Assembly (NCBI RefSeq): GCF_023055435.1
Contig: NW_025963957.1
Location: 5,146,001 to 5,210,000, forward strand
Origin: Haliotis rufescens
Lineage: Eukaryota
Direction of reading: 5' to 3'
Length of the DNA stretch: 64,000 nucleotides
The notes under the pieces were generated by a model, which was not told the DNA's origin, ran no database searches, and was given only the letters and a program-made list of their open reading frames with translations. Of the stretch, positions 26,064 through 64,000 are shown one piece after another; the first letter of the stretch is position 1, and each line of letters begins with the position of its first letter. Made by a program: the position numbers and the translations under genes.

Positions 26064-26971
26064 TAGAGTCGGGATCGGTCTCAAGCCGCTTTGGGCAATA
26101 CGTCAGCCTCACCGCGGTATGACAAAGTATCGTGGAGAAAGTAACGTGTACTTCGGGGTTACAAATGATGGTCATGCAAGATTCAAACAAACTTTAAGCG
26201 ACAGAACCTGAGTTTCAGAATCTTTAGTCATAAACTACACACTGTTCGAGAGAGCCTGTCCTGCCGTACCGGAAGTACAAGTCCGTCATTGAAAATCTGG
26301 ATCATGAAAAGATAACTTAAAGACCATTCACGTCAAGGAATTGTTCTGACTCAACTAGTCCAAAGATGGCGGCATTGTCATTTGTATCACAAAGTTACCC
26401 AGAACCACTGCCAGGCAAGGAAACAACAAATAACGCGTCCGGGATCGAACCACCGACTTTCCGTTGTACAGACGCTCTATCTACTAGGCCACGTAGGAGA
26501 TCAGATAGATTTTGAGAAATGTGATTTCCATTTATTCGATAGAGTTGGGAATTATACATGTTATATATCATCATCATTATCATCATTTTTTGGATAAAAC
26601 ATGCAATCTGAAATACGTCTAAAGATACGGGCAGCGAGTAAAACACACTTACGTATGTCCTTAAGGGTCACCTTGTAACATATATAAGAATGTAACCCCT
26701 CGCCTGGACTAGATCAGTATTATAAATAATATTCCACATGACCGAAAAGGAGTATAGTTTCTGAAACTAAAACATATTGTAACAGGTACAGAGTGACACG
26801 CATAGACATGCATCTGTATCAGCTTATAGTCTACATGTACACCCTGTGTGCAGGGTGCCCTGCTGTGTCATATCTTTCATAAGCGTCACATTGCAAACTT
26901 GTTTTGTATTCTTATGCAACCGTCTTGAAGAAAAATAGGAATAGTGCGTATTTCTTAAGCTGAATTCCTCT

Positions 26972-31666: not shown

Positions 31667-33564
31667 TCACAGGGTTTTTTTAAATTTGAATATGCGGACA
31701 AATCGGCCACATGTAACATACAGAAACCTGTCCCCATCAAGACAGATACCACGGGGATCTTTCAGACCATCCTGATGTGTGAGTACATCTCTGACAAACT
31801 GCCCCGACTCTGTCAGCTGAATCACCTTGTGGGAGTCTTTGTCTGCAAGCAGGATATCTCCTGTGCTGGTTGTTGTGATACCCCGAGGAAATGTCAAAGC
31901 TCTGACTCCCGCGGGAGTGTAGGTGGAAACAGCGACTCCTTCACTGGTCACACATACAAGGGAGTTAACTCCACTGACTTTCAAGTCACCATTACTGGTG
32001 ACATGGATATAGTCTGGACTCCTTATGATACCTGTGTTGATAGACTTCAGTATCCTCCCTGTCATGTCCAGTATGTCCACAGAGTGAGATTGTCTACATG
32101 TACCCGCCGCCAGCTGTGAAGGGCTCAGAGAGGACAGAGCGAAGTACTCCTTGCTTGTTTTGATAGTTGACAGTAATACAGGATCTGGGGTAACATTCAC
32201 TGTAACTATTTCCTTATTGTTTGGAACACTGACAGCTATCTGACTCTCACTTAACTTTGCTATTTGCCAAGGCCAACCAGAAAGCAGTAAATTACCAAGC
32301 GTGTTTGGGTCTGATGTGTGATATGTTTTGAGGCTCTTGTTATAGTAATCTGCAACTACTGTTACAGTTAAACCATCAACAGTCAACACTGTGACGTCAT
32401 TCAAATGAGTATCCTTCTTATCCCCGTCCGCCACACAGTCAATATTGTGATGTAAAACAGGGGTAGACTGGCGGTCACTCACACAACGGACAGCTGCAAC
32501 CTCCCCCAGCTGTAGGTCATCCACTGCTTTACTCAGCTTGTCCATGTCGTGTGTGAATACAACCCTTCCTTGCGCTGGTCTGTTGTCCATGTCGTGTGTG
32601 AATACAACCCTTCCTGGTGCTGGTCTGTTGTCCATGTCGTGTGTGAATACAACCCTTCCTTGCGCTGGTCTGTTGTCCGTGTCGTGTGTGAATACAACCC
32701 TTCCTGGTGCTGGTCTGTTGCCCGTGTCGTGTGTGAATACAACCCTTCCTTGCGCTGGTCTGTTGTCCGTGTCGTGTGTGAATACAACCCTTCCTGGTGC
32801 TGGTCTGTTGCCCATGTCGTGTGTGAATACAACCCTTCCTGGCGCTGGTCTGTTGCCCGTCTGTCTGTTGTCTGTAGGCGCCTGACCCACCGACTCGTAG
32901 ACAGCATACATGTCCCTCTCACAGTTGGACGTCACAGCATTGGCTGTGAACTCATACTGCTGCTGGTACATCTGTAGCTCAATCTCCTGGGATTTTATTT
33001 CTGCGTGTAATTCATGTAATTGTTCATCGGATGATCGGTCGACTTTATCAAGGAGTTGTTTTTCCTTTCTTAAAATCACTTCTACTACTCTCTGACGTAT
33101 ATTTCTGATTTCATCTTTAATATTTTGCGCATTTGTCTGTATTTCTTTGATTTGAGATTTCCTTAAGATGGTTATATTTTCTGAAGTTGTCATTTTGATT
33201 TTCAGTTCTTAGTTTTGATTTGACAGGTGTTCTCTTACAAGAGGAGTCATATTATCTAAGGTATCAACATCGTCACATTTCCTGTGTTCTATACTGCAGC
33301 ATGTATGACAAATGGCTATCCTACAATCTTTACAGAACAACTCTATCTGTTTGTCTTTGTGTGTTTTACACATAAAGCGATGCCTAGGTTTTCTCTTGGT
33401 AGCATCAGACACATCCACAACGTCATGGTCACGTGACATTGGCATGATGTTGTGCATCTTCAGACATCCATCACAGAAGACCTCGTCACAGACGGAGCAC
33501 CATGATGTTGCAGGAGTTGTCTTCCCTTGTGTTTTGCAAACACTGCAGACATTTGCATCGGCAG
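31667..33564 (-). pseudogene. TRIM gene copy 1, large exon (B-box1, B-box2, coiled coil, VNTR linker, NHL-like propeller) with a premature stop
   Basis: ttacag|CT acceptor. CSVC...CSVC...CDGC...H..H and CKTH...CKDC...CHTC...H motifs. In-frame TAA at 33209-33211 where copy 2 has CAA. The downstream 508-aa ORF is intact. Confidence 0.85.
32541..32856 (-). repeat. 45-bp coding minisatellite, 7 units (NRPA[P/Q]GRVVFTHD[M/T][D/G])
   Basis: Seven RVVFTHD repeats in the 508-aa ORF. Confidence 0.92.
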
Positions 33565-39020: not shown

Positions 39021-41532
39021 TACACTCGACAAAAACCATTCGCCAAAGCTGCAAAGGTTGTTACCTGGAAGTGTAATAAATCATGAAACACACCGTCAAG
39101 CAAGTGAACGTTGGTCGCGGATATTCGTAAAAGCTCAACTACCAGTGCCATAACAAATGTAGTTTATGTGAAAGAAGCTGGACTCACTTTCCGAGAATTA
39201 GCAAATAATACGTTCTTTGAGGGAAGACAACGCTGACAGGTATTAAACACAAAACGGTAATGGTGTTTTATTGAGTCATCTGTGCGCGTGGATGTTCGTA
39301 CATAAGAAAAATTATCAGACGTGAGGTCATTTACATAAGTGAATAAGAGGCTGCATCTCGATGTGTAGAGTTGCGTCCCTTAGGTGTGACAGGAACCTAT
39401 GATCGTGGGCTCGAATCCCAGATTTGCTGTGATCAGTTTCTAGGTTTGTCAGCACCCGGCCCGTTCTTGTGAATTTCACCTCATGTGTTACACATCGAAA
39501 CCACCCACATGCAGCTGACACGCCGTGATATAACTCACAGTCTGTTCAAAGCGCCCTCAAACAAACCTCACTCACTCGAGATGAAACGTTCTGAATCATT
39601 TCCAATATTCCTCTTTACAAGGTGTAAAGGAAGTGGCACTTACTAAGGAGGGTTTTGTGTAGAATATTTCATATACCAGAGACATACCATCGATTCCTTA
39701 CGTGTGTGGCTATTTAACTTCTTGCTTTTTTTAAACGCATTTAAAAAAATGTCTTTCCTCTTATACACAGCTAAAAACATCACGTTGTACAAACGTTGTA
39801 TAGACGCTCTATCTACGAGACCACGTAGGAGATCAGATAGATTTTGAGATATTGCGATTTGCAGTTATTCTATATAGTTGGGAATTATACATGTTATATA
39901 TCATCATCATCATAGTGTTTTGGCTGAAGCATGTAGCTGAAAACTTGTTATAATCTGAAAAAAACGTCTAAAGATACGGGCAGTGAGTAAAACACACTTA
40001 CGTATGTTCTTAAGGGTCACCTTGTAACATATTTAAGAATGTAACCCCTCGCCTGGACTAGATCAGTATTATAAATAATATTCCACAGGACCGAAAAGGA
40101 GTATAGTTTCTGAAACTAAAACATATTGTAACAGGTACAGAGTGACACGCATAGACATGCATCTGTATCAGCTTATAGTCTACATGTACACCCTGTGTGC
40201 AGGGTGCCCTGCTGTGTCATATCTTTCATCAGCGTCACATTGCAAACTTGTTTTGTAATCTACTGCAACCGTCTTAAAGAAAAATAGGAATAGTGTGTAT
40301 TTCGTGAGCTGAATTCCTCTAGTTCGTTGGTTGGTTTGTTGTTTAACGCCGCATTCAGCAATATTCCAGCTATATGACGGCGATCTGTAAATAATCGAGT
40401 CTGGACCAGACAATCCAGTGATTAATATCATGAGCATCGATCCATGCAATTGGGATCGATGACATGCATCAACCGCCTCTTGCGACAAGCATAGTCGCTT
40501 TTTACGGCAAGCATGGGTTGCTAAAGACCTTTTCTAGCCCGGATGAATTCATGTGATGTATTAGTCCGGTTAAAGAGTAGGTCCATAAATGACAGTCAAT
40601 TGTTTCCCATCGTTGGTCATTTTATGCTTACGGGAAGACGTCTGTTACATTGGTCACGGTTAAAGCTTTGGTTCAACATCGTGTTTATTCTCCTGAACTA
40701 TGTTACCCCGCATTGAGTTAATTAACCTCTGTCCCTTGGGGATTCCGGATTAGAACAGGTCCCAGCGATCTAACTGTTGGCCGTAAGGGCCGACCAATGG
40801 ATAGTGTCGTCAGACTCAGTAATGGGATGATAGTGTCAGCTTACCACGACGGCTGAATCGTTGTTCACAATATCAGTCTTGTCCAGACACCTTACTTAAA
40901 GGCAGGTATCACGTAGCTGGATATTGCTTCGTGCGTCAAGCAACAACCAAATAAACCTCTCCTCACTCGTCAATAACTTCACATAACTAATCAAATAATG
41001 CAATCCAATACGGATACTGACAATTTGTACGACATCAAACATGATCGTCTCTAATCAAAGTGATAGATACTTTCTAGGTCAACTTCGGGGCATTGTAGGT
41101 GTTCCTTTAAGTAATATATGTTCCCTACTGCCCATCATTTATCTAAACTTGTAACCAATTGTAAGCTACATAAAGGCTGCACAACTTCTAGGCCGCTGTT
41201 GGTTAGAGAGTATTGGACAGAGAGATACACGGATAGGTGTGTGGTTGACCGTGGGCTACATGACAGCTTGGGTCGGAGAGTATTTTGAAATACATGTAGA
41301 GGTAAAGGGTTGTGCAACCTTTGGATTGATTTACACCAGATAGTATTTCGAGGTGGGCGTAGATGTAGGTGAGTGAAGAAGGACCCATGTATTTTGAGAT
41401 ACGTGTATGTGTATAGGGTTGTGCTACTTATGGAATATTTTCATACTGGATAGTATTTCAAGACTGGTAAAGTAGTATAGTGTTCTGCATCGTGTGTATG
41501 ATCCTCATATTTGAGAGTGTGGAGACAGGTGT

Positions 41533-44246
41533 AGTGGTAAGGGATTGTGCAACCCAGTGGAAAGGGATTGTGCAACCCAGTGGTAAGGGATTGTGCAACC
41601 CAGTGGTAAGGGATTGTGCAACCTAGAAGTAAGGGATTGTGCAACCCAGTGGTAAGGGATTGTGGAACCCAGTGGTAAGGGATTGTGCAACCCAGTGGTA
41701 AGGGATTGTGCAACCCAGTGGTAAGGGATTGTGGAACCCAGTGGTAAGGGATTGTGCAACCCAGTGGTAAGGGATTGTGCAACCCAGTGGTAAGGGATTG
41801 TGCAACCTAGTGTTAAGGGATTGTGCAACCCAGTGGTAAGGGATTGTGCAACCCAGTGGTAAGGGATTGTGCAACCCACTGGTAAGGAATTGTGCAACCC
41901 AGTGATAAGGGATTGTGCAACCCAGTGGTAAGGGATTGTGCAACCCAGTGATAAGGGATTGTCCAACCCAGTGGTAAGGGATTGTGCAACCCAGTGGTAA
42001 GGGATTGTGCAACCGAGTGGTAAGGGATTGTGCAACCCAGTGGTAAGGGATTGTGCAACCCAGTGGTAAGGGATTGTGCAACCCAGTGGTAAGTGATTGT
42101 GCAACCCAGTGGTAAGTGATTTTGCAACCCACTGGTAAGGGATTGTGCAACCCACTGGTAAGTGATTGTGCAACCCACTGGTAAGGGATTGTGCAACCCA
42201 GTGGTAAGGGATTGTGCAACCAAGTGGTAAGGGATTGTGCAACCCAGTGGTAAGGGATTTTTCAACCAAGTGGTAAGGGATTGTGGAACCCAGTGGTAAG
42301 GGATTTTTCAACCTAGTGGTAAGGGATTTTTCAAACTAGTGGTAAGGGATTTTTCAACCTAGTGGTAAGGGATTGTGCAACCTAGTGGAAAGGGATTGTG
42401 CAACCAAGTGGTAAGGGATTTTTCAACGCAGTGGTAAGGGATTTTTCAACCCAGTGGTAAGGGATTTTTCAACCTAGTGGTAAGGGATTGTGCAACCCAG
42501 TGGTAAGGGATTGTGCAACCCAGTGGTAAGGGATTGTGCAACCCAGTGGTAAGGGATTGTGCAACCCAGTGTTAAGGGATTGTGCAACCCACTGGTAAGG
42601 GATTGTGCAACCCACTGGTAAGGGATTGTGCAACCCAGTGGTAAGGGATTGTGCAACCTAGTGGTAAGGGAATGTGCAAACCACTGGTAAGGGATTTTGC
42701 AACCCACTGGTAAGTGATTGTGCAACCTAGTGGTAAGGGATTGTCCAACCTAGTGGTAAGGGATTGTGCAACCCAGTGGTAAGGGATTGTGCAACCCAGT
42801 TTTAAGGGATTGTGCAACCCAGTGGTCAGGGATCTTGCAACCTAGTGGTAAGGGATTGTGCAACCTAGTGGTAAGGGATTGTGCAACCCAGTGGTAAGGG
42901 ATTGTGCAACCTAGTGTTAAGGGATTGTGCAACCCAGTGGTAAGGGATTGTGCAACCCAGTTGTAAGGGATTGTGCAACCCACTGGTAAGGAATTGTGCA
43001 ACCCAGTGATAAGGGATTGTGCAACCCAGTGGTAAGGGATTGTGCAACCCAGTGATAAGGGATTGTCCAACCCAGTGGTAAGGGATTGTGCAACCCAGTG
43101 GTAAGGGATTGTGCAACCGAGTGGTAAGGGATTGTGCAACCCAGTGGTAAGGGATTGTGCAACCCAGTGGTAAGGGATTGTGCAACCCAGTGGTAAGTGA
43201 TTGTGCAACCCAGTGGTAAGTGATTTTGCAACCCACTGGTAAGGGATTGTGCAACCCACTGGTAAGTGATTGTGCAACCCACTGGTAAGGGATTGTGCAA
43301 CCCAGTGGTAAGGGATTGTGCAACCAAGTGGTAAGGGATTGTGCAACCCAGTGGTAAGGGATTTTTCAACCAAGTGGTAAGGGATTGTGCAACCAAGTGG
43401 TAAGGGATTTTTCAACCCAGTGGTAAGGGATTTTTCAACCCAGTGGTAAGGGATTTTTCAACCTAGTGGTAAGGGATTGTGCAACCCAGTGGTAAGGGAT
43501 TGTGCAACCCAGTGGTAAGGGATTGTGCAACCCAGTGGTAAGGGATTGTGCAACCCAGTGTTAAGGGATTGTGCAACCCACTGGTAAGGGATTGTGCAAC
43601 CCACTGGTAAGGGATTGTGCAACCCAGTGGTAAGGGATTGTGCAACCTAGTGGTAAGGGAATGTGCAAACCACTGGTAAGGGATTTTGCAACCCACTGGT
43701 AAGTGATTGTGCAACCTAGTGGTAAGGGATTGTCCAACCTAGTGGTAAGGGATTGTGGAACCCAGTGGTAAGGGATTGTGCAACCTAGTGGTCAGGGATC
43801 TTGCAACCTAGTGGTAAGGGATTGTGCAACCTAGTGGTAAGGGATTGTGCAACCCAGTGGTAAGGGATTGTGCAACCCAGTGGTAAGGGATTGTGCAACC
43901 TAGTGTTAAGGGATTGTGCAACCCAGTGGTAAGGGATTGTGCAACCCAGTGGTAAGGGATTGTGCAACCCAGTGGTAAGGGATTGTGCAACCTAGTGTTA
44001 AGGGATTGTGCAACCCAGTGGTAAGGGATTGTGCAACCTAGTGGTAAGAGATTGTCCAACCTAGTGGTAAGGGATTGTGCAACCCAGTGGTAAGGGATTG
44101 AGCAACCCATTGGTAAGGGATTGTGCAACCCAGTGGTAAGGGATTGTGCAACCCAGTGGTAAGGGATTGTGCAACCCAGTGGTAAGGGATCTTGCAACCT
44201 AGTGGTAAGGGATTGTGCAACCTAGTGGTAAGAGATTGTGCAACCC
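41533..44246. repeat. 23-bp satellite array, ~118 units (AGTGGTAAGGGATTGTGCAACCC)
   Basis: 2714 bp / 23 = 118. The 23-aa periodicity of the spurious ORFs equals three units. Variant blocks recur at offsets of 1104 and 989 bp. Confidence 0.95.
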
Positions 44247-47041
44247 ATGGATTATTTCTATATTAGTGATTAAGTCCTGATAGGTGTTGCGGTTTTGGGA
44301 TGTGAAGCCCATGGATTGGTTATATCTATATTATACAGTGTGTCGAGCTAGCTGCGGTGATATGTGGCTGTGCAGCTAATAGGGCAGATTGGTTTCGAGA
44401 GTGTTGTGAGATCCATATACGAGAGTAGGATATTCTTAACAGCTCAACTACCAGTGCCATAACAAATGTACTTTGGACTCACTTTCTGAGAATTAGCAAA
44501 TAATACGTTCTTTGAGGGAAGACAACGCTGACAGGTGTTAAACACAAAAGGGTAATGGTGGTTTATTGAGTCATCTGTGCGCGTGGATGTTCGTACATAA
44601 GAGAAATGATCAGACGTGAGGTCATTTACATAAGTGAATAAGAGGTTGCATCTCGATGTGTAGAGTTGCGTCCCTTAGGTGTGACAGGAACCTATGATCG
44701 TGGGCTCGAATCACAGATTTGCTGTGATTACGTTTCTAGGTTTGTCAGCACCCGGCCCGTTCTTGTGAATTTCGACTCATGTGTTAAACATCGAAACCAC
44801 CCACATGCAGCTGACACGCCTTGATATAACTCACATTCTGTTCAAAGCGCCCTCAAACAAACCTCACTCCCTCACTCGAGATGAAACGTTCTGAATAATT
44901 TCCAATTTTCCTCTTTACAAGGTTTAAATGAAGTGATACTTACTAAGGAGGGTTTTGTGTGGAATATTTCACATACCAGAGACATACCATCCAATCCTTA
45001 CGTGTGTGGCTATGTAACTTGTTGCTTTTTTTTAAACGCATTTAATTTTTTTTATTAGTCTTGTTGCAGTAGGAAACATTTCCTCTTATACACAGCTAAA
45101 ACTTCTACCCCGATTTGGAGGATTATAATGGCCAAAGCTTCACAAGTCTCACAGAAGACCCGGGTTCGAATCCCGACATGGATTCATTGTCGTGATGTGA
45201 CACAATGTAGGAAGCACATTCTTGGTCTATGTGCCAAGCTCAAATCAGTTCATATGCCCACGTGGGTATGCTTGATGGACAGAAAACAAGAATCCTTCAT
45301 GATGACATTTTTCAATGTTAAAAAAGTCCAAGCTCCCTCCTCACTTGAGAAACAAATAGGATGAGAAACGTTTATTTTTATGTATCCCAACAGTCATGAT
45401 ACAAATCCCACAATAAACCCTACAATACATCCTACAATAAACCCTACAATAAACCCTACAATACACATGAACATGCACACGCGGGACAAAACTACATGTG
45501 AGTGTAACTAATTACAAACATTAGAAAACTTCAAATCATCACCATTTAACTCATTTTCGTGATAAAATTCCTCCATGGTTGTTTTTTGCTGTTCAAGGCC
45601 GTATCAAGCAATATTCCGGCTATATAGAGTCGACATGTACGAGTCGGAACCAGACTATCTGGTGATTGATATTATAACAACTATCGACGAGCACGGTGAT
45701 ACACAATGATCTAAGTCATCGAGCCCGACCACACGATCCATTAAATCGTCTCTTACTACATACACAGATTGCTGGGGGCCTCTGTAACCTGAATCCCAAT
45801 GGGGTCTTAGTGCTAAATAAAGGAGAACAAACAAGTTGAGAAGATATATGTTTAGTTGCTGTAGTATTAGGAGTTGTACCTGTTACTGAGACAAGGATCT
45901 AGACAAATAGGAATCCTGACAACTGTTTACCAACATGTCGAAACATTGTGAAAACTTTGCAATGTTAATAAATTGCATACTAGGTTGAGTGTTAAAGCTA
46001 CTTTGAAGAGTAGAACGCTACTTTGAAGAGTATTTCGGTTATGTCACCATGTGTCAGCTTTATGGGAAGAAAGCCCAAAGTGGGACACGACGTGGACTTT
46101 AATGACTGCGATAGAGAACTCACAGACCAAGTGTCACAATGTGTAATTCCTCAGTAACGTTCCTTAGCTCAAAAGTGCAATAATAAGTTTAAAGATGTTC
46201 AGTGATGTATTCTATTAACTAATTTTGTAACTGAATTGTTTGAAAATATCGGCAGTACATATCTCGGCAACCCCTTATCAATATATGGTTTTACTACGTG
46301 TATTGCCTATAATGCTATAAAGCTCCGTCTACCTTGAACATAAATCAAACTGAAACGGCGCGGAAACTTTTAGAAAAGTAATGTAACATGTTTTCCCTGC
46401 TGGAATTTTTTATGGTTGATCAGTGTTGGTATTGTGATCTTTTACGGCCACTTCAATCACTAGCGCGTCCGTCATATTATTTAGAATCTGTCGATAATAG
46501 TGATCGAACTTAATAGTACTTCAACAGTTCTGAAGGCATCCGCTACTTATTAACTCCCCTATGACGATTCGAAAGCGGTAAGAAAATAATTTCAAACTCT
46601 CAGGGAACCGTGACAAGTTGCTGTAGTAGACATAGTATTGTTAAGTATTATATATTTCATGTGATCAAACATAAACATCACAGTTTCCTGGTACTACGCT
46701 TACGTTATGAATTGCTCGACATTACTGACGAGAAGGTCAAATAAAACATTAGAGCAACGACTAACACATGTATCAGCACACACGAAGGGATTCAATCAAG
46801 ATTAAATATTTTAAGAAGCCAGGGGACTGACCAACTACACACCTCAAACATATACTATACAACAGTAAATAACATCACCTGTTTTAGGTGAGCGGACTCA
46901 GGTACTGCCATGAGATAGGCCTTCTCTCTGTGACATTCCGTTCCAATAGTGGATGTAATATCTTAACTATGTGAATTACTGTTGAAAGCAATGAACAAGA
47001 TCGGAAATTGCCGTAAAGGAGGAATTGTCTCATGGTCTTAA

Positions 47042-48789
47042 CTATGTACATATGTAGACATGTCTCACTTCACAGTTTTTAAATTTAAATACGCGGACAC
47101 ATCGGCCACATGTAACATACAGAAACCCGTCCCCATCAAGACAGATACCACGGGGATATTTCAGACCATCCTGATGTGTGAGTACATCTCTGACATACTG
47201 CCCCGACTCTGTCAGCTGAATCACCTTGTGGGAGTTATAGTCTACAAGCAGGATATCTCGTGTGCTGGTTGTTGTGATACCCCAAGGACATGTCAGAGCT
47301 CTGACTGCTGCGGGAGTGTAGGTGAAAACAGCGACTCCTTCACTGGTCACACATACAAGGGAGTTAACTCGTCTTTCACTGACTATTAAGTTGTTATTAC
47401 TGGTGACATGGATATAGTCTGGATTCCTTAAGACACCTGTGTTGATAGACTTCAGTATCCTCCCTCTCATGTCCAGTATGTCCACAGAGTGAGGCTGGTA
47501 ATATGTACTCGCCGCCAGCTGTGAAGGACTCAGAGAGGACAGAGCGTAGTACGTCTTGCTTGTCTTGATTGTTGACAGCAATACGGGATCTGGGGTAACA
47601 TTCACTGTAACTATTTCCTTACTCAATGGAACACTGACAGCTACCTGACTCTCACTTAACTTTGCTACTTGCCAAGGCCCATTAGAAAGCAGTAGATTGC
47701 CAAGCGTGTTTAGGTCTGATGTGTGATATGTTTTGAGGCTACTGTTAAAGTAATCTGCAACTACTGTTACAGTTAAACCATCAACAGTCAACACTGTGAG
47801 GTCAAACAAATCAGTATCCTTCTTATCCCCGTCCGCCACACAGTCAAAAGTGTTATGTAGAACAGGGGTAGACTGGCGGTCACTCACACCACGGACAACT
47901 GCAACCTCCCCCAGCTGTAGGTCATCGACTGCTTTACTCAGCTTGTCCATGTCGTGTGTGAATACAACCCTTCCTGGCGCTGGTCTATTGTCCGTGTCGT
48001 GTGTGAATACAACCCTTTCTGGCGCTGGTCTGTTGTCCGTGTCGTGTGTGAATACAACCCTTTCTTGCGCTGGTCTGTTGCCCGTGTCTCTGTTGTCTGT
48101 AGACGCCTCACCCACCGACTCATAGACAGCATACATGTCCCGCTCACAGTTGGACGTCACAGCATTGGCTGTGAACTCATACTGCTGCTGGTACATCTGT
48201 AGCTCGATCTCCTGGGATTTTATTTCTGCTTGTAATGCATGTAATTGTTCATCGGAAGATCGGTCGACTTGATCAAAGAGTTGTTTTTCCTTGCTCAAAA
48301 TCACTTCTACTACTCTCTGACGTATATTTCTGATTTCATCTTTAATATTTTGCGCATTTGTCTGAATTTCTTTGATTTGAGATTTCCTTAAGATGGTTAT
48401 ATTTTCTGAAGTTGTCATTTTGATTTTCAGTTCTTGGTTTTGATTTGACAGGTGTTCTCTAACAAGAGGAGTCATATTATCTAAGGTATCAACATCGTCA
48501 CATTTCCTGTGTTTTATACTGCAGCATGTATGACAAATGGCCATCTTACAATCTTTACAGAACAACTCTATCTGTTTGTCTTTGTGTGTTTTACACATAA
48601 AGCGATGCCTAGCTTTTCTCTTGGTAGCATCAAACACATCCACAACTTCATGGTCACGTGACATTGGCATGATGTTGTGCATCTTCAGACATCCATCACA
48701 GAAGACCTCGTCACAGACGGAGCACCATGATGTGGCAGGACTTGTCTTCCCTTGTGTTTTGCAAACACTGCAGACATTTGCATCGGCAG
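47042..48789 (-). CDS. TRIM E3 ligase copy 2, large exon (B-box1, B-box2, coiled coil, NHL-like beta-propeller); intact
   Basis: Open 588-codon frame with an acceptor at 48790-48791. NHL-like blades NPDYIHVT, CPWGITTT...DYNSHKVIQL...GQYVR and YPRGICLDGDGFLYVT. With the RING exon this gives 679 aa. Confidence 0.93.
47946..48081 (-). repeat. 45-bp coding minisatellite, 3 units
   Basis: Three RVVFTHD repeats. Confidence 0.9.
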
Positions 48790-49523
48790 CTGTAATGACA
48801 AATATCAACCTGTGTTTTCTGGATTAAGGTACATATATATAATTATATTCAAAGGAAAACTATAAGGTTATCGGAATAAAAATATCACATCTAATTATTA
48901 AATATTCATGTGAATCAATTCATTAGTGTTAAATATAAGATAGCTACGCGATAAATCGTAGAGAACAATGATCAAACATTAAACAGGCGCTCGAAAATTG
49001 ATGACGTCGTAACTTGGACAACGTTATTTTTTAGTTGGAAGTTGTTCCCCATAGATGTAGCTGGAGAGCGCAGATAAACGCAATGGCCGACCGATCGCAC
49101 CCAAAAGTAGGCGAGATATGACAATCAGTACTTGGAGGAAAGGAGCAGATAATCGACGTCAGTATTGTGGAAATACCAAACTTAACTTCCCTCGACATAA
49201 ACTGTAGTTGTCCGACATTTAAGAGGTCGAATTGAATTCAGGGAGTCATGATTATTTACATACGGGTAAATGTTTTTAAAACTTGAACAATTTATTGACA
49301 TCAAAGGATGTATAAAATGGTATCTCACATACGAAATAAAAAATAAGCGACTCATGGTTTATTCTCCCTGCAGTATTTTATTGTACGATTAACAAGGACC
49401 ACGAGTCGTTTATTTCTTAAATATGCAACAGAATGCAATTCAGTTTTGCAATTGGATTAAACCTCATAATCTCTTGTTAAGTATGTGGTTATACTTATTG
49501 AACATATACTTTCAATCAGTTAC

Positions 49524-53058: not shown

Positions 53059-54116
53059 CAAACACAATTCGCGAAAGCTGCAAAGGTTGTTACCTGGAAG
53101 TGTAATAAATCATGAAACACACCGTTAAGCAAGTGAACGTTGGTCGCGGATATTCTTAACAGCTCAACAACCAGTGCCATAACAAATGTACTTTATGTGA
53201 AAGAAGCTGGACTCACTTTCCGAGAATTAGCAAATAATACGTTCTTTGAGGGAAGACAACGCTGACAGGTATTAAACACAAAACGGTAATCAGACGTGAT
53301 TAAGAGGCTGAACTAGATGTGTAGAGTTGCGTCCCTTAGGTGTGACAGGAACCTATGATCGTGGGCTCGAATCACAGATTTGCTGTGATTATGTTTCTAG
53401 GTTTGCGGCACCCGGCCCGTTCTTGTGGATTTCACCTCATGTGTTAAACATCGAAACCACCCACATGCAGCTGACACGCCGTGATATAACTCACAGTCTG
53501 TTCTAAGCGCCCTCAAACAAACCTCACTCACTCGAAATGAAACGTTCTGAATCATTTCCAATTTTCCTCTTTACAAGGTTTAAATGAAGTGATACTTACT
53601 AAGAAGGGTTTTGTGTGGAATATTTCATATACCAGAGACATACCATCCATTCCTTACGTGTGTGGCTATTTAACTTGTTGCTTTTAAAAAAATGTATTAG
53701 TCTTGTTGCAATAGGAAACATTTCCTCTTATACACAGCTAAAAACATCACGTTATACAAACGTTGGACATACGCTCTATCTACGAGACCACGTAGGATAT
53801 TAGATAGATTTGGAGAAATGTGATTTGCAGTAATTCTATATAGTTGGGAATTATACATGTTATATATCATCATCATAATAGTGTTTTGGCTGAAACATGT
53901 AGCTGAAAACTTGTTATAATCGGAAAAAACGTCTAAAGATACGGGCAGTTAGTAAAACACACTTACGTATGTCCTTAAGGGTCACCTTGTAACATATAAG
54001 AATGTAACCCCTCGCCTGGACTAGATCAGTATTATAAATAATATTTCACAGGACCGAAAAGGAGTATAGTTTCTGAAACTAAAACATATTGTAACAGGTA
54101 CAGAGTGACGCGCATG

Positions 54117-55093
54117 TATTATAGGCATAAAAGTACAGTAATTAACAACTAATTAAAGTAATTAACAATTCATTAGGACACCTCCGTGATTGTATATAAA
54201 GGTCAAGAAGAGGAGTTGAAACCAGTAAGATGTAAACATAACACATTGATATATATATAGGAGACGGGCAGCTCTGATAGTTGAAGACTACGGGAGCATA
54301 CTTGGCCACGAGTAACCAGGGGTGAGGGTAGTAGGTCGAGGGCTATACATAAATGAAAAACAAGTGGAACAGAGATGAGAGGGACGGAAACGTCAGGGTC
54401 TTGAGACATATATGGTATTGGGGGGGAATAGTTCGAATTCCAAAAGGGTGAGAAGCTACATCATGGCAAGTCCGAATAAGGTGCTGGTTATTAGATAAGA
54501 GTGGGTTAGAATGATCTAGTGTAGGGGGAAAAGGTGGCTGACCAATGATAGATGGAAAAATGAGTAGAGCTGTGACGTAGGTACCGGTTTAAAAAGGGGC
54601 AAAAGCCCCAAATCGAGAGAACGGCTAAGAACGAAGAGAGAACGGCTAAGAACGAATAGAGAACGGCTAGAGAGCGGCTAGGTAGCGGCTGCGGCTGGGG
54701 AGACTACATCTGGACTGGTGCTCCGCTCTCGGCTTGTTGTCATGATCTTTCGAACCAGAAACCAAACCTAGGCACCAGCATTTCGACTGAGACTGAAGCT
54801 TTGCGGCCGAAGTCTCATAATTAAGTGACAATTAGAGTGGGTTGACCGGCAACACAAAGTTGGAATAAAAGCTGTTAAACGAAGATCACTCTTTGTGCTT
54901 GTTGGAGGAACTACAGTAATAGGTCCAAGGCCCTCGGGTACTGACATTGTACCTCTCGCTCATCCCAGACAGTCAGCACCAAAGAACGAGGGGATTACCG
55001 TAGTTCAGGTGAAGAGGTACGCGACTGGCTATACCCTGGTAATTAACGACAATTACCGCCGGTAATTAAGGCGTTTTAAAATTACCTTGGATA
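54117..55093 (+). repeat. 5' LTR
   Basis: TATTATAGGC...CCTTGGATA. TATA-like TTTAAAA at ~54588, AATAAA at ~54864, internal GAGAACGGCTA repeats. Confidence 0.92.
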
Positions 55094-55095
55094 CG

Positions 55096-55113
55096 TGGTG
55101 GAGATGCGGGGTA
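55096..55113 (+). promoter_or_regulatory. primer binding site complementary to the tRNA-Ala 3' end
   Basis: TGGTGGAGATGCGGGGTA, 2 nt after the LTR. It complements ...CCCCGCATCTCCACCA, the typical eukaryotic tRNA-Ala 3' end. Confidence 0.8.
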
Positions 55114-58100
55114 CGATCTTCCCTGACGACTGCCAAAAAGCATTGTCAGGTGACGGTATGCAGCGGTTGCACAAGTGAAGAGACGGAGTGAAGCGGTTTC
55201 ATGAGTGAAGTGAAGTTGTGCAGCGGTTGCACAAGCGAAGTGGCGGTGTGAAGCGGTTGCACAGATTCCCTCCTTAGTGGTACATGGTCAGTGCCGACAC
55301 GGTGAATACGCCAGGCCAAGTCAGTGCAAACTAGTGAGAGTTGACTGTGCAGTGGTTGCACGAGAACTTCCACTGTGAGGGAGATTACAGTCGTTGGGAG
55401 GAACGGTGCAGACGTTTGCACATCCGGAACGGTGCAGACGGTTGCACATCCATGGACCACTCCGGGCTCACTATGGAGGGGCGTTGGGAGAGACGAGCGG
55501 ATGGTTACACCTGGACCCAGTGGTGGGGTGACGTGCAAGGAAGTGATGGACAGAACTAACAATTGTGACATTTTAACATTTTGTGTGGTGCAAAGTTTCA
55601 TTGGACCGAGCCTGGTTAGGTAAGCAATATTTTGATGCATTGTGTTGAATACATATTGTAAAAGAACGAGATCCTTGAACATAATCATGCCACTAACACA
55701 AGACTCAAACAATAACGGTACAACAGTCGATCAACAGGGTAGGCGTGGGTCGGCTTTATTTTCAATTCCACTCACAAGTTGTAAGGTCGTTCCATCTGAC
55801 CTAGTGAGCCCAGCACTAATAATAAGCACTCCGGTAGCATACCAGTCTCATGGTGCCAGTACACATTTCAGGCCCTCAGTGAATGGGAGCATCACCGGCC
55901 TCGCACGGCTTGGCGAGGTAATTGAGAGATAATTGCTCCTAGCAAATCTTGAAGAAAACATCTCCCAATGAAATTCCTCGAACTTAGTCATTGTGCTAAA
56001 TAGTGCCAATGACCTTACTGACATGAAACAACAAACGTTTGATCCATTTACTTACTTTTTACAAGTGGTCAGACATCAAACGGCTATAATTAGTTGAAAC
56101 AAGGATGATTGTATCAGGGATCTTGTTCTTGGAAATGCATCTCAGAATGTAAAAATATTTGTGATTACTAGACGATATTCTACACTTGCTAAAGTTATTT
56201 AGAAAACAGCTTACGCTGCCGGGTCCCCTCAGTTTGAGTCAAAAGTAAGCTTGCAATTCACTTACTGAGTGAACAGGTGGACTAGCCACTAATTCGCGAC
56301 AATCTTCACTCCAACCAATAAATGTTGTTAATTTGAGCCAGTACCTTCGTGCCCAAACACCACAAGACACACTCACCTACCTAGATCCTTAGAGACACAT
56401 ACACGGTCAACATTTTACTGTCCACAGAATAACAGTCATAATCCAGGCAAAACCACCATGGCAGTGACATTTTACAAATAGAGCAGAAAGTTCCCACCAT
56501 CCCCCGGGCAACCATACACGTGTAGGGGAGGTGGTATACTACACTCCAACGTAGGGTTCGCAAGTTACTCACAGCACACTTTGTGGCACAAGCCTAACCT
56601 CTCCCGGCCAGCAATCTCTCCCCCCTCCCCCCCCCCCCCCCCCTCACTGAATCTGATACTCATAACCATGATCTTGTCAGCTGTTGCCCTGCTCCAGTAA
56701 AACAGGCAGGGGCGAGCGAGCTGGTCTGAGTTGTTTACAGTATGGCACTGATGGTGTGGGCCAGTGTCTATTCATTAAAAACAGTTATTCCTTGAATTAC
56801 GTTCAGTATGGTAACCATCTATATACATATCGGGCTTCAGCCCATTTAGGCAATTCATTAATCATTATTAATGATAGCAGTTATGGGGTAGGCGCACACT
56901 GAGGTATGTTAGTACAAGAAACCCTTAGTAAAAAAAAAAAAGAAAAAAAAAAGAAACCCATATAATTTTGATAGAAACCAATAACTCCAATAAATTGAAA
57001 AAGATCCAAACTGAGATGAGAGATTCCGCTTTGAAAAATTGTAGACTTGCTTCATTTTTAGGGCTATATCGTTACAGTAAGAGCTCGGCGGGAGAAAAAT
57101 AAGGTTCAGGTTCTGTGAGGCAGACTAGTAATTTAGTAGCATCATGGTATTTATATCTAAGGAAAACCAAAATAAAAATATTCCTATATAGTTCGTTTTA
57201 ACTGAACTTCTCGCCTTTACATAAATATCACCAGAAGACCATGAGCATCAATAGTAGCACTGGGCGGAAACAGGATGTCCATAGGAGTATGAACACCTAT
57301 AGGACTATTAAGATAATTCTTATTATGTCAAATATTGAATCCAGTTTATTAGTGCTACTTCATGAAAAAAAATATAAAAAACAACAACTCAAAACAAACA
57401 AACAAAACCCTACTTGATTTGTTAATTAAAAACATTTGTTTATGTTATTCATCAATGTCTACTGTGGTGCCTTTGATATTTGCCTACAAAATTGACTTGA
57501 TAAACGTTTCATGATAAAAGAGTTATACTTTGTAAAATGTGTTTCCTGCTTTGAAAAGCATTTGAAAGGCAATTGTGTTACGCCCAATGAACGAAAATCC
57601 AAATGGTTCAGCTATAAGTGGACCGATATCTTTTTAATCTGCAGAACATAGATAAGATGAGATAGATAAGATAATATCTATTGCAGAAACATTCCATCAC
57701 AGGACCTGTTATTGCTGGAATATTGCTGAAAGCGGCGTAAAGCTAAAACTCACTCACTCAACGGTTGATAAGGTTGAAGGGGTATTTATTGTTTAAAATA
57801 ATAGACATGGAAACATATGCAATTGATATTGATGGCTTCATTGTTTGACAGGATGCTGTGTCATGGCTGTGAACATGTATATTTCTTTCTTGAACGTACA
57901 GTGAAGTAGGTAGAGCGACAAGTTCAATATTTAATTTATAGTTACCTAATCTTAGTTTAGAAATATAAATGTTTCGAAAGTTGTAAAAATTACATCAATA
58001 TCAGTACGTCAGACCTTTTACCCCTCCACTGCATTTGAACTCGTCAATAGATCACCAAAACCTGGCCCTTCCCTAATAGTAGACCGCCAAAAGGAGAAAC

Positions 58101-58575
58101 CATGGCATGTGCTCAGGAATTCTTCTCTACCCTCCCACCCCCACCCCCCTCTCTCGATGAGCAACCCAACCTATGCCCCTGGAATAAATGTATCCGGTTA
58201 TCAGATTATAAGTGACCACAGCGGTGCTGGTACCCCCTATTCATCAACAAACTTGGCACACTTGGTACCTCCGGTGGCCTGGTACTGGCCTCAGTGTCAA
58301 CTATCGACATGGATGCTAGGTCAAATAACCCCAAACACCCTGTCCCCACTGGTGATATGTCATCAACCTATGTGTCAATTATGGTAGCATTTAAAGCATC
58401 TCATGGTGGATAGGATTTCAGGAGAGAATAGTATAACAACTAATACTACCGAAATTCAAGCATAGCTTTAGCATCTGACACACGACACATACCAAGAATG
58501 GTGGCAGGCATACCTCAATACCAAAGGGATGTTCACCTAAAGATGTACATATATTGATCCATTTGAATTAAGGAA

Positions 58576-59590
58576 ATAATGCCGACGAGATGGTTTCTTG
58601 TCGAGGATGTAATACCGACGAGATGGTTTCTGGTTTATTGCCAAGGATGTAATGCGGACGAGATGGTTTATTGCCACGGACGTACTGCCGACGAGATGGG
58701 TTTCTTGTCGAGGATGTAATGCCGACGAGATGGTTTCTTGTCGAGGATGTAATACCGACGAGATGGTTTCTGGTTTATTGCCAAGGATGTAATGCAGACG
58801 AGATGGTCTATTGCCACGGACGTACTGCCGACGAGATGGGTTTCTTGTCGAGGATGTAATGCCGACGAGATGGTTTCTTGTCGAGGATGTAATGCCGACG
58901 AGATGGTTTCTGGTTTATTGCCAAGGATGTAATGCAGACGAGATGGTTTATTGCCACGGACGTACTGCCGACGAGATGGGTTTCTTGTCGAGGATGTAAT
59001 GCCGACGAGATGGTTTCTTGTCGAGGATGTAATGCCGACGAGATGGTTTCTTGTCGAGGATGTAATGCCGACGAGATGGTTTCTGGTTTATTGCCAAGGA
59101 TGTAATGCAGACGAGATGGTTTATTGCCACGGACGTACTGCCGACGAGATGGGTTTCTTGTCGAGGATGTAATGCCGACGAGATGGTTTCTTGTCGAGGA
59201 TGTAATACCGACGAGATGGTTTCTGGTTTATTGCCAAGGATGTAATGCAGACGAGATGGTTTATTGCCACGGACGTACTGCCGACGAGATGGGTTTCTTG
59301 TCGAGGATGTAATGCCGACGAGATGGGTTTCTTGTCGAGGATGTTATACCGACGAGATGGTTTCTGGTTTATTGCCAAGGATGTAATGCAGACGAGATGG
59401 TTTATTGCCACGGACGTACTGCCGACGAGATGGGTTTCTTGTCGAGGATGAAATACCGACGAGATGGTTTCTTGTCGAGGATGAAATACCGACGAGATTG
59501 TTTCTTGTCGAGGAAGTAATGCCGACGAGATGGTTTCTTGTCAAGGAAGTAATGCCGACGAGTTTGGTTCTTGTCGAGGAAGTAATGTCA
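58576..59590. repeat. composite minisatellite (33/34/40-bp variants, 140-bp higher-order unit) inside the LTR element
   Basis: About 29 GACGAG cores. The identical spurious ORF MPRTYCRRD recurs at 58671, 58811 and 58951. Confidence 0.9.
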
Positions 59591-61215
59591 ACAGGGTTAT
59601 AATTATTTAGGTGGAGTCAGTGATGTAGCGTATCATAGGATAGATATCAGGGGTGTCAGGATTAAGAACATGTCGCCTACCACCAGTGCGCAATGGAGGT
59701 GGGTGACATGTGGGAAACTGGTATCAAATAATAGGAGGTGCCTGCCGCCACGTAACTTCATAACGAAAGTGAATTTTATTGCCCGGACCGAATAGCCATC
59801 TTCTGCAAGGGTGATAGTCGGTTCTGTCGTACAGGACATGGGCGCCAGGAATTATTGATGTTACTATAACGGCACAACATGATGACACCAGACAAATTGA
59901 CTACTACACCGGTAGATAGCACACTTACATTACAGACAAGCTGACTAACGAATCGACAGGTATAATAGCCAACTATACCACCTTGGGGCCACCGAGAGAG
60001 ATCTGAAATAATTGCCGACCAGGTCGTGTTGCTTATTGGGCAGGTACACCTTAAAAATCACATGACATGTCATGGCCCCTTATCAGACAGAACCCGATAC
60101 ACGGAAAAATAACTTGAAGTGAAAGTAGTGAAAGCTCACTCCCACGAGTCACTTATACAAGAGCAAATCCAAGTTAAGCCCATGGTGTTGATACTCCTAA
60201 AATTAAAAACAAAAACAACAACAACAAAATACATAATAACAGACAGAAACAACAACGATTGTGACCGTCATATGTTGGCTGGCTACTCATATGAGAACGA
60301 TCCTTGGCTCAGGGTCTCACCATGTCGTGTACACGAATATAGACATAATATAATTTCGCTTACACAAATATCCATTGGGATACCATGAGTGAAGATTGTT
60401 GCCTGAGAATTATTAAAAATTACATTGGTGTATCACCCTTTCGAATTGTCCATCCTTCTTATGGAATTGAGAATCACATAAGTGTGTGACCCTTTCGAAT
60501 TGTCCATCCTTCATGTTCTGTTAAGGAATATTGGAGTAACCTCTTGTAATCGTACAAATCATAACAGGGTGATTCATTGTAATTTTACGTAAAGGGTGTG
60601 ACCCTTCTGAACTTGTCCATGCTACTTGTACTTGTACTACGAATCATTGTACACTGGTTAAATTGTCCACGTTATTTACGGTATCAAGAATACATGGAAG
60701 GTAACATTTGACAAACTGTCATTGGTGGGATTGATAAAGTGATGATCCCCGACAGGTCTGAAAACATTGCAGGTAGGTTACTCCTGAAATTATTTAGTTA
60801 GCAAACTAGCGTGTTGTATTATCGAATAGTATGAAATTGTTAGTCCAAGGGCTTTGTACTATGAAACCGGATTTCCGGGAATATATCAATGTATGTATTG
60901 GAATGTATCTCAATGTGTATGTTAGGTTGCGGTCAACCAAATCCACTTGTTGCAAGACTAATAATAGGAATAATTATCTCGTATATTTACTGAACGTTCA
61001 GAACAAGGCCCGGATCCCTGCGTCACAGCATCCAAGAGTGTGGGGACACACTCTTCGCCAGAACGGGGGTCGTATTATAGGCACGAAAGCGTAATACATA
61101 TTTAGATAATAAAAGGGTAGTTAAATCAATAGGTCATAGAAATAAGAGGGAATATATACCAGATAATATAACAAGAATTGGCACCATCTCAGAGTGTGGG
61201 GACACACTCTTCGCC

Positions 61216-61226
61216 AGAACGGGGGT
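61216..61226 (+). promoter_or_regulatory. polypurine-tract-like plus-strand primer site
   Basis: AGAACGGGGG(T) ends 2-3 nt before the 3' LTR. Confidence 0.6.
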
Positions 61227-61228
61227 CG

Positions 61229-62205
61229 TATTATAGGCATAAAAGTACAGTAATTAACAACTAATTAAAGTAATTAACAATTCATTAGGACACCTCCGTG
61301 ATTGTATATAAAGGTCAAGAAGAGGAGTTGAAACCAGTAAGATGTAAACATAACACATTGATATATATATAGGAGACGGGCAGCTCTGATAGTTGAAGAC
61401 TACGGGAGCATACTTGGCCACGAGTAACCAGGGGTGAGGGTAGTAGGTCGAGGGCTATACATAAATGAAAAACAAGTGGAACAGAGATGAGAGGGACGGA
61501 AACGTCAGGGTCTTGAGACATATATGGTATTGGGGGGGAATAGTTCGAATTCCAAAAGGGTGAGAAGCTACATCATGGCAAGTCCGAATAAGGTGCTGGT
61601 TATTAGATAAGAGTGGGTTAGAATGATCTAGTGTAGGGGGGAAAGGTGGCTGACCAATGATAGATGGAAAAATGAGTAGAGCTGTGACGTAGGTACCGGT
61701 TTAAAAAGGGGCAAAAGCCCCAAATCGAGAGAACGGCTAAGAACGAAGAGAGAACGGCTAAGAACGAATAGAGAACGGCTAGAGAGCGGCTAGGTAGCGG
61801 CTGCGGCTGGGGAGACTACATCTGGACTGGTGCTCCGCTCTCGGCTTGTTGTCATGATCTTTCGAACCAGAAACCAAACCTAGGCACCAGCATTTCGACT
61901 GAGACTGAAGCTTTGCGGCCGAAGTCTCATAATTAAGTGACAATTAGAGTGGGTTGACCGGCAACACAAAGTTGGAATAAAAGCTGTTAAACGAAGATCA
62001 CTCTTTGTGCTTGTTGGAGGAACTACAGTAATAGGTCCAAGGCCCTCGGGTACTGACATTGTACCTCTCGCTCATCCCAGACAGTCAGCACCAAAGAACG
62101 AGGGGATTACCGTAGTTCAGGTGAAGAGGTACGCGACTGGCTATACCCTGGTAATTAACGACAATTACCGCCGGTAATTAAGGCGTTTTAAAATTACCTT
62201 GGATA
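61229..62205 (+). repeat. 3' LTR
   Basis: Same length and sequence as the 5' LTR. I noticed only one A/G substitution, near 54529/61641. Confidence 0.92.
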
Positions 62206-64000
62206 CATGGACATGCATCTGTATCAGCTTATAGTCTACATGTACAACCTGTGTGCAGGGTGCCCTGCTGTGTCATATCTTTCATCAGCGTCACATTGCA
62301 AACTTGTTTTGTAATCTACTGCAACCGTCTTAAAGAAAAATAGGAATAGTGTGTATTTCGTAAGCTGAATTCCTATAGTTTGTTGGTCGGTTTGTTGTTT
62401 AACGCCGCATTCAGCAATATTCCAGCTATATGACGGCGATCTGTAAATAATCGAGTCTGGACCAGACAATCCAGTGATTAATATCATGAGCATCGATCCA
62501 TGGAAATGGGATCGATGACATGCAGCAACCGCCTCTTGCGACAAGCATAGTCGCTTTTTACGGCAAGCATGGGTTGCTAAAGACCTTTTCTACCCCGGAT
62601 GAATTCATGTGATGTATTAGTCCGGTTAAAGAGTAGGTCCATAAATGACAGTCAATTGTTTCCCATCGTTGGTCATTTTATGCTTACGGGAATACGACTG
62701 TTACATTGATTCCGATTAAAGCTTTGGTTCAACATCGATGTGTAGAGTTGCGTCCCTTAGGTGTGACAGGGACCTATGCTCATGGGCTCGAATCCCAGAT
62801 TTACTGTGATTATGTTTCTAGGTTTGTCAGCACCCGGCCCGTTCTTGTGAATTTCACCTCATGTGTTAAACATCGAAACCACCCACATGCAGCTGACACG
62901 CCGTGATATAAACTCACAGTCTGTTCAAAGCGCCCTCAAACAAACCTCACTCACTCGAGATGAAACGTTCTGAATCGTTTCCAATTTTCCTCTTTACAAG
63001 GTTTCAAGGAAGTGATACTTCCTAAGAAGGGTTTTGTGTGGAATATTTCACATACCAGAGACATACCATCCATTCCTTACGTGTGTGGCTATTTAACTTG
63101 TTTGCTTTTTTTAAACGCATTTAAATTTTTTTATTAGTCATGTTCCAGTAGGAAACATTTCCTCTTATCCACAGCTAAAACTTCTACCCTGATTTGGACG
63201 ATAATAATGGCCAAAGCATCACAAGTCTCACAGAAGACCCGGGTTCGAATCCCGACATGGATTCATTGTCTTGATGTGACACAATGGAGGAAGCACATTC
63301 CTGGTCTCTGTGCCAAGCTCAAATCAATTCATATGCCCACGTGGGTATGCTTGAAGGGCAGAAAATAAGAATCCTCCATGATGACATTTTTCAATGTTAA
63401 AAAAGTCCAAGCTCCCTCCTTACTTTAGAAACAAATGGGACGAGAAACTTTTATTTTTATGTATCCCAACAGTCATGATACAAATCCCACAATAAACCCT
63501 ACAATACACATGGACATGGACACGCGGGTCAAAACTACATGTGAGTGTAACTAATTACTAACATTAGGAAACTTCAAATCATCACCATTTAACTCATTTT
63601 CTGGATAAAATTCCTCCATGGTTGTTTTTTGCTGTTCAAGGCCGTATCAAGCAATATTCCGGCTATATAGAGTCGACCTGTACGAGTCGGAACCAGACTA
63701 TCTGGTGATTGATATTATAACAACTATCGACGAGCACGGTGATACACAATGATCCGACCCGAGCACACGATCCATTGAATCGTCTCTTACTACATACACA
63801 GATTGCTGGGGGCCTCTGTAACCTGAATCCCAATGGGGTCTTACTGCTAAATGAAGGAGAACAAACAAGTTAAGAAGATATATGTTTAGTTGCTGTAGTA
63901 TTAGGAGTTGTACCTGTTTAATGTAAGGATCTAGACAAATAGGAATCCTGACAACTGTCTACCCACCAAATGTGGAAGCATTGTAAACACTTTGCAATGT

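Follow-up and report, generated by a model that had tools for sequence, protein, structure and literature searches.

A young non-coding LTR element with TA...TA ends and a 4-bp target-site duplication in Haliotis rufescens, and its envelope-carrying Ty3/gypsy relatives

A 64,000-nucleotide stretch of the Haliotis rufescens genome (contig NW_025963957.1, C179:5146001-5210000 in our numbering; hereafter the window) contains, at positions 54117-62205, a long terminal repeat (LTR) element with TA...TA ends and a 4-bp target-site duplication (TSD). We are highly confident that this young element, which is non-coding, derives by deletion from a Ty3/gypsy family that carries env; it was probably mobilised by the enzymes of its full-length relatives. 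Terminal CA is usually regarded as an invariant integrase signal, and TG...CA termini are typical of, but do not define, Ty3/gypsy elements. An earlier account of the window, made from its letters alone (the sequence-only reading), is followed up here through searches of the 1.33-Gb genome.

Results

Boundaries of the element in the window

The two 977-nt LTRs (TATTAT...TGGATA; 54117-55093 and 61229-62205, offset 7112, all on the plus strand like the other features below unless stated) are identical at 976 of 977 positions, the sole mismatch (54529/61641) falling within a G run. The sequence-only reading had the length, the TA...TA ends and the junctions at 54117 and 62205 right, and the same ends recur in solo LTRs with TSDs of their own. 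The outer junctions read GCGCATG/TATTAT on the left and TTGGATA/CATGGAC on the right (slashes mark boundaries), with CATG at both 54113-54116 and 62206-62209. At the inner junctions a CG intervenes: GGATA/CG/TGGTGGAGATGCGGGGTA on the 5' side, with TGGTGG directly after the CG, and AGAACGGGGGT/CG/TATTAT on the 3' side. The proposal that integrase trims CG from both sides agrees with its presence at both inner junctions, including the spacer between U5 and the primer-binding site (PBS) at 55094-55095, and its absence from the outer ones; at U3, a trim of exactly two bases would follow from the symmetry discussed below.

The host segment that received the insertion is locally repeated, and its two other copies read GACACGCATAGACATG, each with the single CATA that the sequence-only reading had reported (26801-26804 and 40150-40153). 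A genome pattern search for an orthologous empty allele with a single CATG (which should read GCGCATGGACATG) returned just these two CATA paralogs. Flank lengths match those of the empty copies with TA...TA ends only if CATG is counted once, and TG...CA ends would leave no duplication. The right-hand LTR-to-flank junction is also present in a contig of public run X2.

Downstream of the first CG, positions 55096-55113 form an 18-nt PBS that is perfectly complementary to the 3' ends of four host genes for tRNA-Ala(AGC) with CCA added; past a one-base gap the complementarity continues over CGATC (55114-55118). Such a perfect PBS occurs in two of the 18 family PBSs listed, those of the window copy and of one other non-autonomous copy, and the seven long partner copies among the 18 (the autonomous relatives described below) have short insertions after TGGTGG, their imperfect PBSs showing TTT, ACT or AACA variants after TGGTG. 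The perfect sites may reflect correction by tRNA copying. The spacer at the PBS junction is CG in 13 of the 18 copies listed, TG in four and CA in one.

The window copy has no intact gag or pol, its cis signals are intact, and its insertion is recent and TSD-flanked, as in a non-autonomous LTR derivative. Its longest open reading frame (ORF), 194 aa on the minus strand, lies over short repeats. It had been called non-coding, which holds in that there is no intact gene, with the qualification that a decayed, frameshifted gag remnant persists at 55912-56386 (tblastn E 3.5e-32; 52-59% aa identity to partner gag). A 33-bp tandem array at 58570-59587 is found also in the pol-env spacer of the partners.

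Ends and target sites across the family

Two genome searches with LTR ends gave at least 43 and at least 40 matches, and searches with internal regions added further copies. The tally covers the 39 family insertions for which we found both outer junctions, of which 21 are solo LTRs and 18 have two LTRs. In 36 of them TA...TA or TA...CA is directly flanked by a 4-bp duplication that is exact and in no case longer, and this tabulation of flanks upholds the boundaries proposed from the window alone. The chance of a 4-bp match per site is 0.5% from base composition and 4% when flanks are swapped between insertions. The left end is TA in 39/39; the right end is TA in 34 and CA in five, and TG...CA occurs in none. 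The TA...TA ends, the CG at both inner junctions and the 4-bp TSD also hold in full-length autonomous copies.

CATG had been named as the TSD. This is correct for the window insertion and does not extend to the family, in which the 36 duplications comprise 22 different words and CATG accounts for five, and a fixed CATG target is rejected on the same counts. The target preference is palindromic, G-W-A-CWWG-T-W-C: of the 36 TSDs, 23 have C at position 1, 35 have A/T at position 2, 34 have A/T at position 3 and 22 have G at position 4, and G stands three bases before the TSD in 25 and C three bases after it in 21. Since the preferred target starts with CW and ends with WG, for six of the 39 insertions, the window copy included, an extension by two bases would give a TG...CA reading; with CATG at only 5/36, the TG...CA look of the window copy is therefore an accident of its target. 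A 2-bp TSD with GTAT...ATAC ends is likewise rejected, because the bases adjoining TA vary with the TSD and G before together with C after is seen in only 14/39. Copies with invariant TG/CA ends and a TSD outside them are absent from the family. Neither of the two outcomes that would have counted against the sequence-only reading was thus observed, and its interpretation is supported.

At one locus (L091-L092, C46:4.82-4.84 Mb) family copies are nested, including 2.4-kb and 3.9-kb deletion derivatives; each has its own 4-bp TSD, and one sits inside another LTR.

Two LTR lengths and a tandem polypurine tract

The sequence-only reading had described a purine tract before the 3' LTR. It is present, but short (AGAACGGGGG), and it occurs twice, 156 nt apart. 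An upstream tract resembling a polypurine tract (PPT), with its CG, lies at 61060-61072 and is followed by a 156-nt unit (61073-61228) that opens with a partner-type U3 start (TATTATAGG) and closes with a second PPT-like tract (61216-61226) and CG. The combination of PPT, CG and TATTATAGG is thus found at 61073 and again at 61229, and the unit begins like the U3 of the partners (77% over ~100 nt including the PPT). The 3' LTR can be read in a short form of 977 nt or in a long form of 1133 nt (61073-62205).

Both forms are integrated in the genome. Solo LTRs flanked by perfect TSDs begin at either start, nine at the downstream one and seven at the upstream one among the 21 scored; three two-LTR copies are long at both ends, and the window copy is short at its 5' end and long at its 3' end. 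An upstream unit is present for 12 of the 14 internal downstream-type starts. From this arrangement we infer that alternative plus-strand priming directly explains the two LTR lengths, which would make the two-PPT LTR a natural case of a single template yielding two LTR lengths. Arrays of the ~152-156-nt PPT/U3 unit are seen at C90:24.587 Mb and at C124:1.156 and 1.196 Mb, and the LTRs of subfamily A1 (L073-L077) start with a 12-nt tandem duplication of TATTATAGGCAT.

Env-carrying autonomous partners

With genome searches from the PBS side we reached eight long copies that belong to two subfamilies and measure 11-17 kb (most 15-17 kb), their LTR pairs being 99.3-100% identical. All eight have in common with the window family the TA...TA LTR ends, the CG spacers (once TG) and the PPT region. 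A 478-aa gag with a zinc knuckle is followed by a single in-frame TGA and then by pol, whose Pfam domains come in the order protease, reverse transcriptase (RT), RNase H and integrase (protease 236-328, RVT_1 912-1075, RT_RNaseH 1163-1267, Integrase_H2C2 1412-1470, rve 1489-1583). This order, together with LTRs, a tRNA PBS, a PPT and a TSD within 4-6 bp, is that of Ty3/gypsy (Metaviridae); the usual TG...CA termini of that group are lacking in the family. The pol tail is weakly chromo-like (Pfam Chromo E 0.023, below cut-off) and can be aligned to P0003, a homolog that bears a chromodomain. Among named proteins, the nearest relatives come from Mytilus and Pinctada. Several copies are broken by stops or frameshifts.

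After pol come the 33-bp array, an 852-aa ORF3 and a 461-aa fourth ORF. ORF3 resembles baculovirus-F envelopes (Baculo_F clusters 0.95, Atlas, 224/256 features) and has a furin-like RQQR site and hydrophobic C-terminal segments; a Pfam search with it gave no match. The fourth ORF (L083:3788-5173, minus strand) is cysteine-rich, and its two subfamily versions are 59% identical; some non-autonomous copies (L067, L070) retain it. Pfam gave only a weak C1 match (E 0.11), and an Atlas score of 0.88 offers a weak lead that its product may be RING-like.

Two further observations concern the coding regions. Between protease and RT, the pol of L075 (~residues 480-770) contains a variable in-frame array with a 78-bp unit in 9-18 copies, the unit being 39 bp in subfamily A2. 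In eight families gag and pol are split by one in-frame TGA or TAG (L073-L080, L108, L113, L115, L136, L141, L144, L145, L157), several with a G(G/A)ACTCG(C/G)GCCT-like context after the stop; this recurrence of a single in-frame stop suggests possible stop-codon readthrough across the family group.

Of the partner sequence, the window element retains only the gag remnant, the array of 33-bp units and the region before the LTR; its closest relative is a copy at C57:6.99 Mb with 99% internal identity.

Related families and an integrase residue

The genome integrase search gave at least 150 matches, from which we took representatives of ten further families; ends were fixed by TSDs for nine (C46_32 left out), and all of these TSDs are 4 bp. 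One env-carrying family, C113, has TA...TA ends (1/1) and another, C24, TA...CA ends (3/3); the abundant, env-less family B has TA...TA ends (10/12 with both ends; 14 examined), two more families have TG...TA, and four have TG...CA (8/9 copies with TSDs). Counting the window family (family A), ends other than TG...CA occur in six of ten families, and all four T(G/A)...(C/T)A combinations are present within one family group. Because sister families with TA...TA, TA...CA and TG...TA ends carry 4-bp TSDs, YA ends are a property of the clade. The TA...TA and TA...CA ends likely reflect an integrase that accepts a relaxed end signal. The copies of family B (e.g. L129-L134, L147-L154) are young, with a single ORF of ~1740 aa and LTR pairs mostly 99.7-100% identical.

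A change from PQ to PA in integrase was considered as the cause of TA ends and rejected, because family B keeps PQ yet has TA...TA. Hare et al. in 2010 reportedly saw Gly218 of the foamy-virus integrase contact the base that faces the C of CA. In the foamy-virus intasome, Pro214-Gly218 form a wedge between the viral strands (PMC6784120). The residue aligned to Gly218 is A/S in 4/4 TA-start families and G in 6/6 TG-start families; over 89 integrase rows it is G in 46, A in 26 and S in 17 (the A/S rows being PxxN[A/S] homologs). Two quick trees were built, with SH-aLRT support only. The second, of RT and integrase, has 42 rows, made up of all 19 genome rows and 23 homologs selected from 120. In it a single branch (SH-aLRT 99), set within A/S rows, holds five of the TG-start families; the sixth forms a long, unplaced branch, and the TA-start families are found in two places. 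That this residue may track the U3 end is a lead rather than a result, since each state is represented by at most two lineages and two of the G families integrate TA at U5. Even so, young families with TSD-proven ends and a candidate residue make end recognition testable by comparing natural families.

Other features of the window

A 23-bp satellite with strong G skew occupies 41533-44247 (118 copies, 92% matches). Long stop-free frames of 513 and 593 aa lie on the minus strand at 31667-33208 and 47042-48823; each overlaps a 45-bp tandem array, with one common unit. Both frames belong to the locally repeated stretch into which the element inserted, and they may be exons of a tandem gene family.

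Discussion

A model for the insertion and its alternatives

Starting from the observed ends, TSDs, PBS match and partner anatomy, we propose the following course of events. RNA of the window type would be packaged in trans and primed by tRNA-Ala(AGC), and plus-strand synthesis could start at either PPT-like tract, 156 nt apart. In this copy the left end would have been fixed by the downstream tract, so that the 5' LTR came out short while the 3' end kept both sites. The linear cDNA would end CGTAT...ATACG (...GGATACG, with CGTATTAT on the U3 side), and integrase would remove the terminal CG and expose 3'-TA; retroviruses expose 3'-CA after processing. Both ends would then be joined 4 bp apart at a target of the preferred palindromic type G-W-A-CWWG-T-W-C, here CATG, which by chance mimics TG...CA. 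The symmetry of CGTAT...ATACG argues for the loss of two bases at U3, the alternative being three (TCG, i.e. TCGTATTAT).

Several points weigh against this account. Both the count of trimmed bases and the use of two priming sites are deduced from sequence. About ten loci stand outside the tally, with a single junction located or as duplicates of another locus, and three of the 39 scored insertions have no matching TSD (CGTG and CATG, a 3-of-4 match; TTCG and TTAA; ATCG and ACAG). The CATG empty allele was not found in the contigs of four public runs, which show presence only. The autonomous partner that the sequence-only reading called for was found, as Ty3/gypsy copies with the same LTR ends and CG, but the partner LTRs are only ~65-80% identical to the window LTR in alignable parts, and the partners are therefore only candidate helpers of the window copy; on the same divergence, the copy belongs to a long-standing non-autonomous lineage. 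Finally, no upstream unit was detected at the internal downstream-type starts of L020 and L026, so some short solo LTRs may stem from a single-PPT subfamily.

Canonical TG...CA ends (54115-62207), with a TSD absent or lost, are suggested by the outer junctions of the window copy (TG/TATT and GATA/CA) and fit the six of 39 insertions that read so when extended. We give this reading almost no credence: at the inner junctions the corresponding positions have neither TG nor CA, 33/39 insertions do not read TG...CA and 36/39 have a 4-bp TSD at the TA boundaries, and the strict rule emulated below fits none of 13 full-length copies. If the TA ends are instead accepted as real, they might derive from former TG...CA ends by decay after insertion or by host mutation directed at TA/CA. 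The five right ends with CA, and two copies (C2a, C583c) in which one LTR has TA and its counterpart CA, could be taken this way, but we consider it very improbable, given left ends of TA in 39/39, elements whose LTR pairs are 99.3-100% identical and have TA at each of their four ends, an abundant unrelated family with TA...TA at every LTR end located in 14 copies, and young TG...CA families of the same genome that keep TG...CA.

The origin of the short 5' LTR leaves more room for doubt. It could stem from recombination between the element and a short solo LTR, or from a template that had a single PPT at first and acquired the 156-nt unit afterwards; recombination is frequent in the family, as mosaic LTRs, mixed TA/CA ends and unit arrays show, and L020 and L026 point the same way. 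Against this stand the perfect TSD, LTRs identical at 976/977 positions, the closest relative at C57, which is long at both ends, and the unit found upstream of 12/14 internal downstream-type starts. We therefore hold such an origin unlikely, with alternative priming preferred.

Beyond the window family, we raise tentatively, and with more doubt than conviction, the idea that a large invertebrate Ty3/gypsy lineage processes a TA end in place of CA because Ala or Ser took over from the conserved glycine at the Gly218 position, that the nested TG families regained glycine together with TG, and that the AGT...AnT ends of Drosophila elements are an untrimmed TA...TA signal. If this were true, LTR ends could be predicted from the integrase sequence, and annotation by TG...CA would place wrong boundaries on many abundant animal families.

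Comparison with known systems

We take the LARD-type label to cover non-autonomous LTR derivatives such as the window copy, which resembles them in that a long internal region without an intact gene is enclosed by intact LTRs, PBS and PPT; it differs in deriving from an env-carrying animal element and in having two tandem U3 starts. The sequence-only reading expected TG-CA finders to mis-bound or miss the family. An emulated strict rule (TG..CA plus a 4-6 bp TSD) found 0/13 full-length copies, and allowing one motif mismatch found 6/13, only one at its true ends; annotation based on TG...CA thus misses or mis-bounds such elements, env-carrying ones included. The expectation does not hold for every tool, as the motif list of LTR_retriever has TATA, TACA and TGTA, and TATA and TACA motifs have been machine-annotated in the annelid Lamellibrachia (PMC8220671). 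Identical terminal dinucleotides are known from the plant elements AtRE1 (TA...TA) and TARE1 (TA...CA); elements without TG...CA are mostly plant Copia (89% of classified cases) and are discussed with 5-bp TSDs (10.1101/137141), whereas those described here are animal Gypsy with 4-bp TSDs. We found no account of TA-ended mollusc gypsy families in the literature, with Repbase and most subscription journals outside the search, and a word search of PMC6238403 found no mention of TSD, PBS or dinucleotides.

Troyka is another animal LTR lineage without TG...CA ends that is present in molluscs, with CG...CG ends and a 3-bp TSD (Kojima 2025, PMC12440569). Identity with Troyka is rejected, because in family A the CG lies outside the integrated end, being missing from the outer junctions, and the duplication is 4 bp (36/39). 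Drosophila errantiviruses, which end AGT...AnT (Nefedova and Kim 2017, PMC5408687), are likewise env-carrying gypsy elements with a target preference and without TG...CA ends. The inner junctions of family B, AGT/TA and TA/ATT, contain the same AGT/AnT trinucleotides; in Drosophila these stay at the integrated ends, whereas in family B they are missing at the outer junctions, i.e. trimmed, and family A trims CG.

A close likeness is to the 'ancient errantiviruses' that Chary and Hayashi (eLife 2026, PMC13524379) described from molluscs, annelids and cnidarians, which are gag-pol-env Ty3/gypsy elements with an F-type env; that paper describes a mollusc/annelid/cnidarian clade with a chromodomain and a tRNA-Ala PBS for two Gibbula elements. 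With a third ORF encoding an F-type envelope after pol, our autonomous partners appear to fit the mollusc members, as matched on described features rather than on an RT tree. That study left out LTR pairs separated by more than 14 kb, and our partners mostly measure 15-17 kb. Its main text, by word search, contains no analysis of LTR termini or target sites, and neither the fourth ORF nor the in-frame gag-pol stop was found in the parts of the paper examined; nor did titles and the opening lines of abstracts in the wider literature yield a close precedent for the dual PPT or the in-frame gag-pol stop. Set beside these systems, the TA...TA family is a well-documented variant rather than a new class, and it is the clade-wide diversity of ends, the possible integrase correlate and the two-PPT LTR that lift the case above routine annotation.

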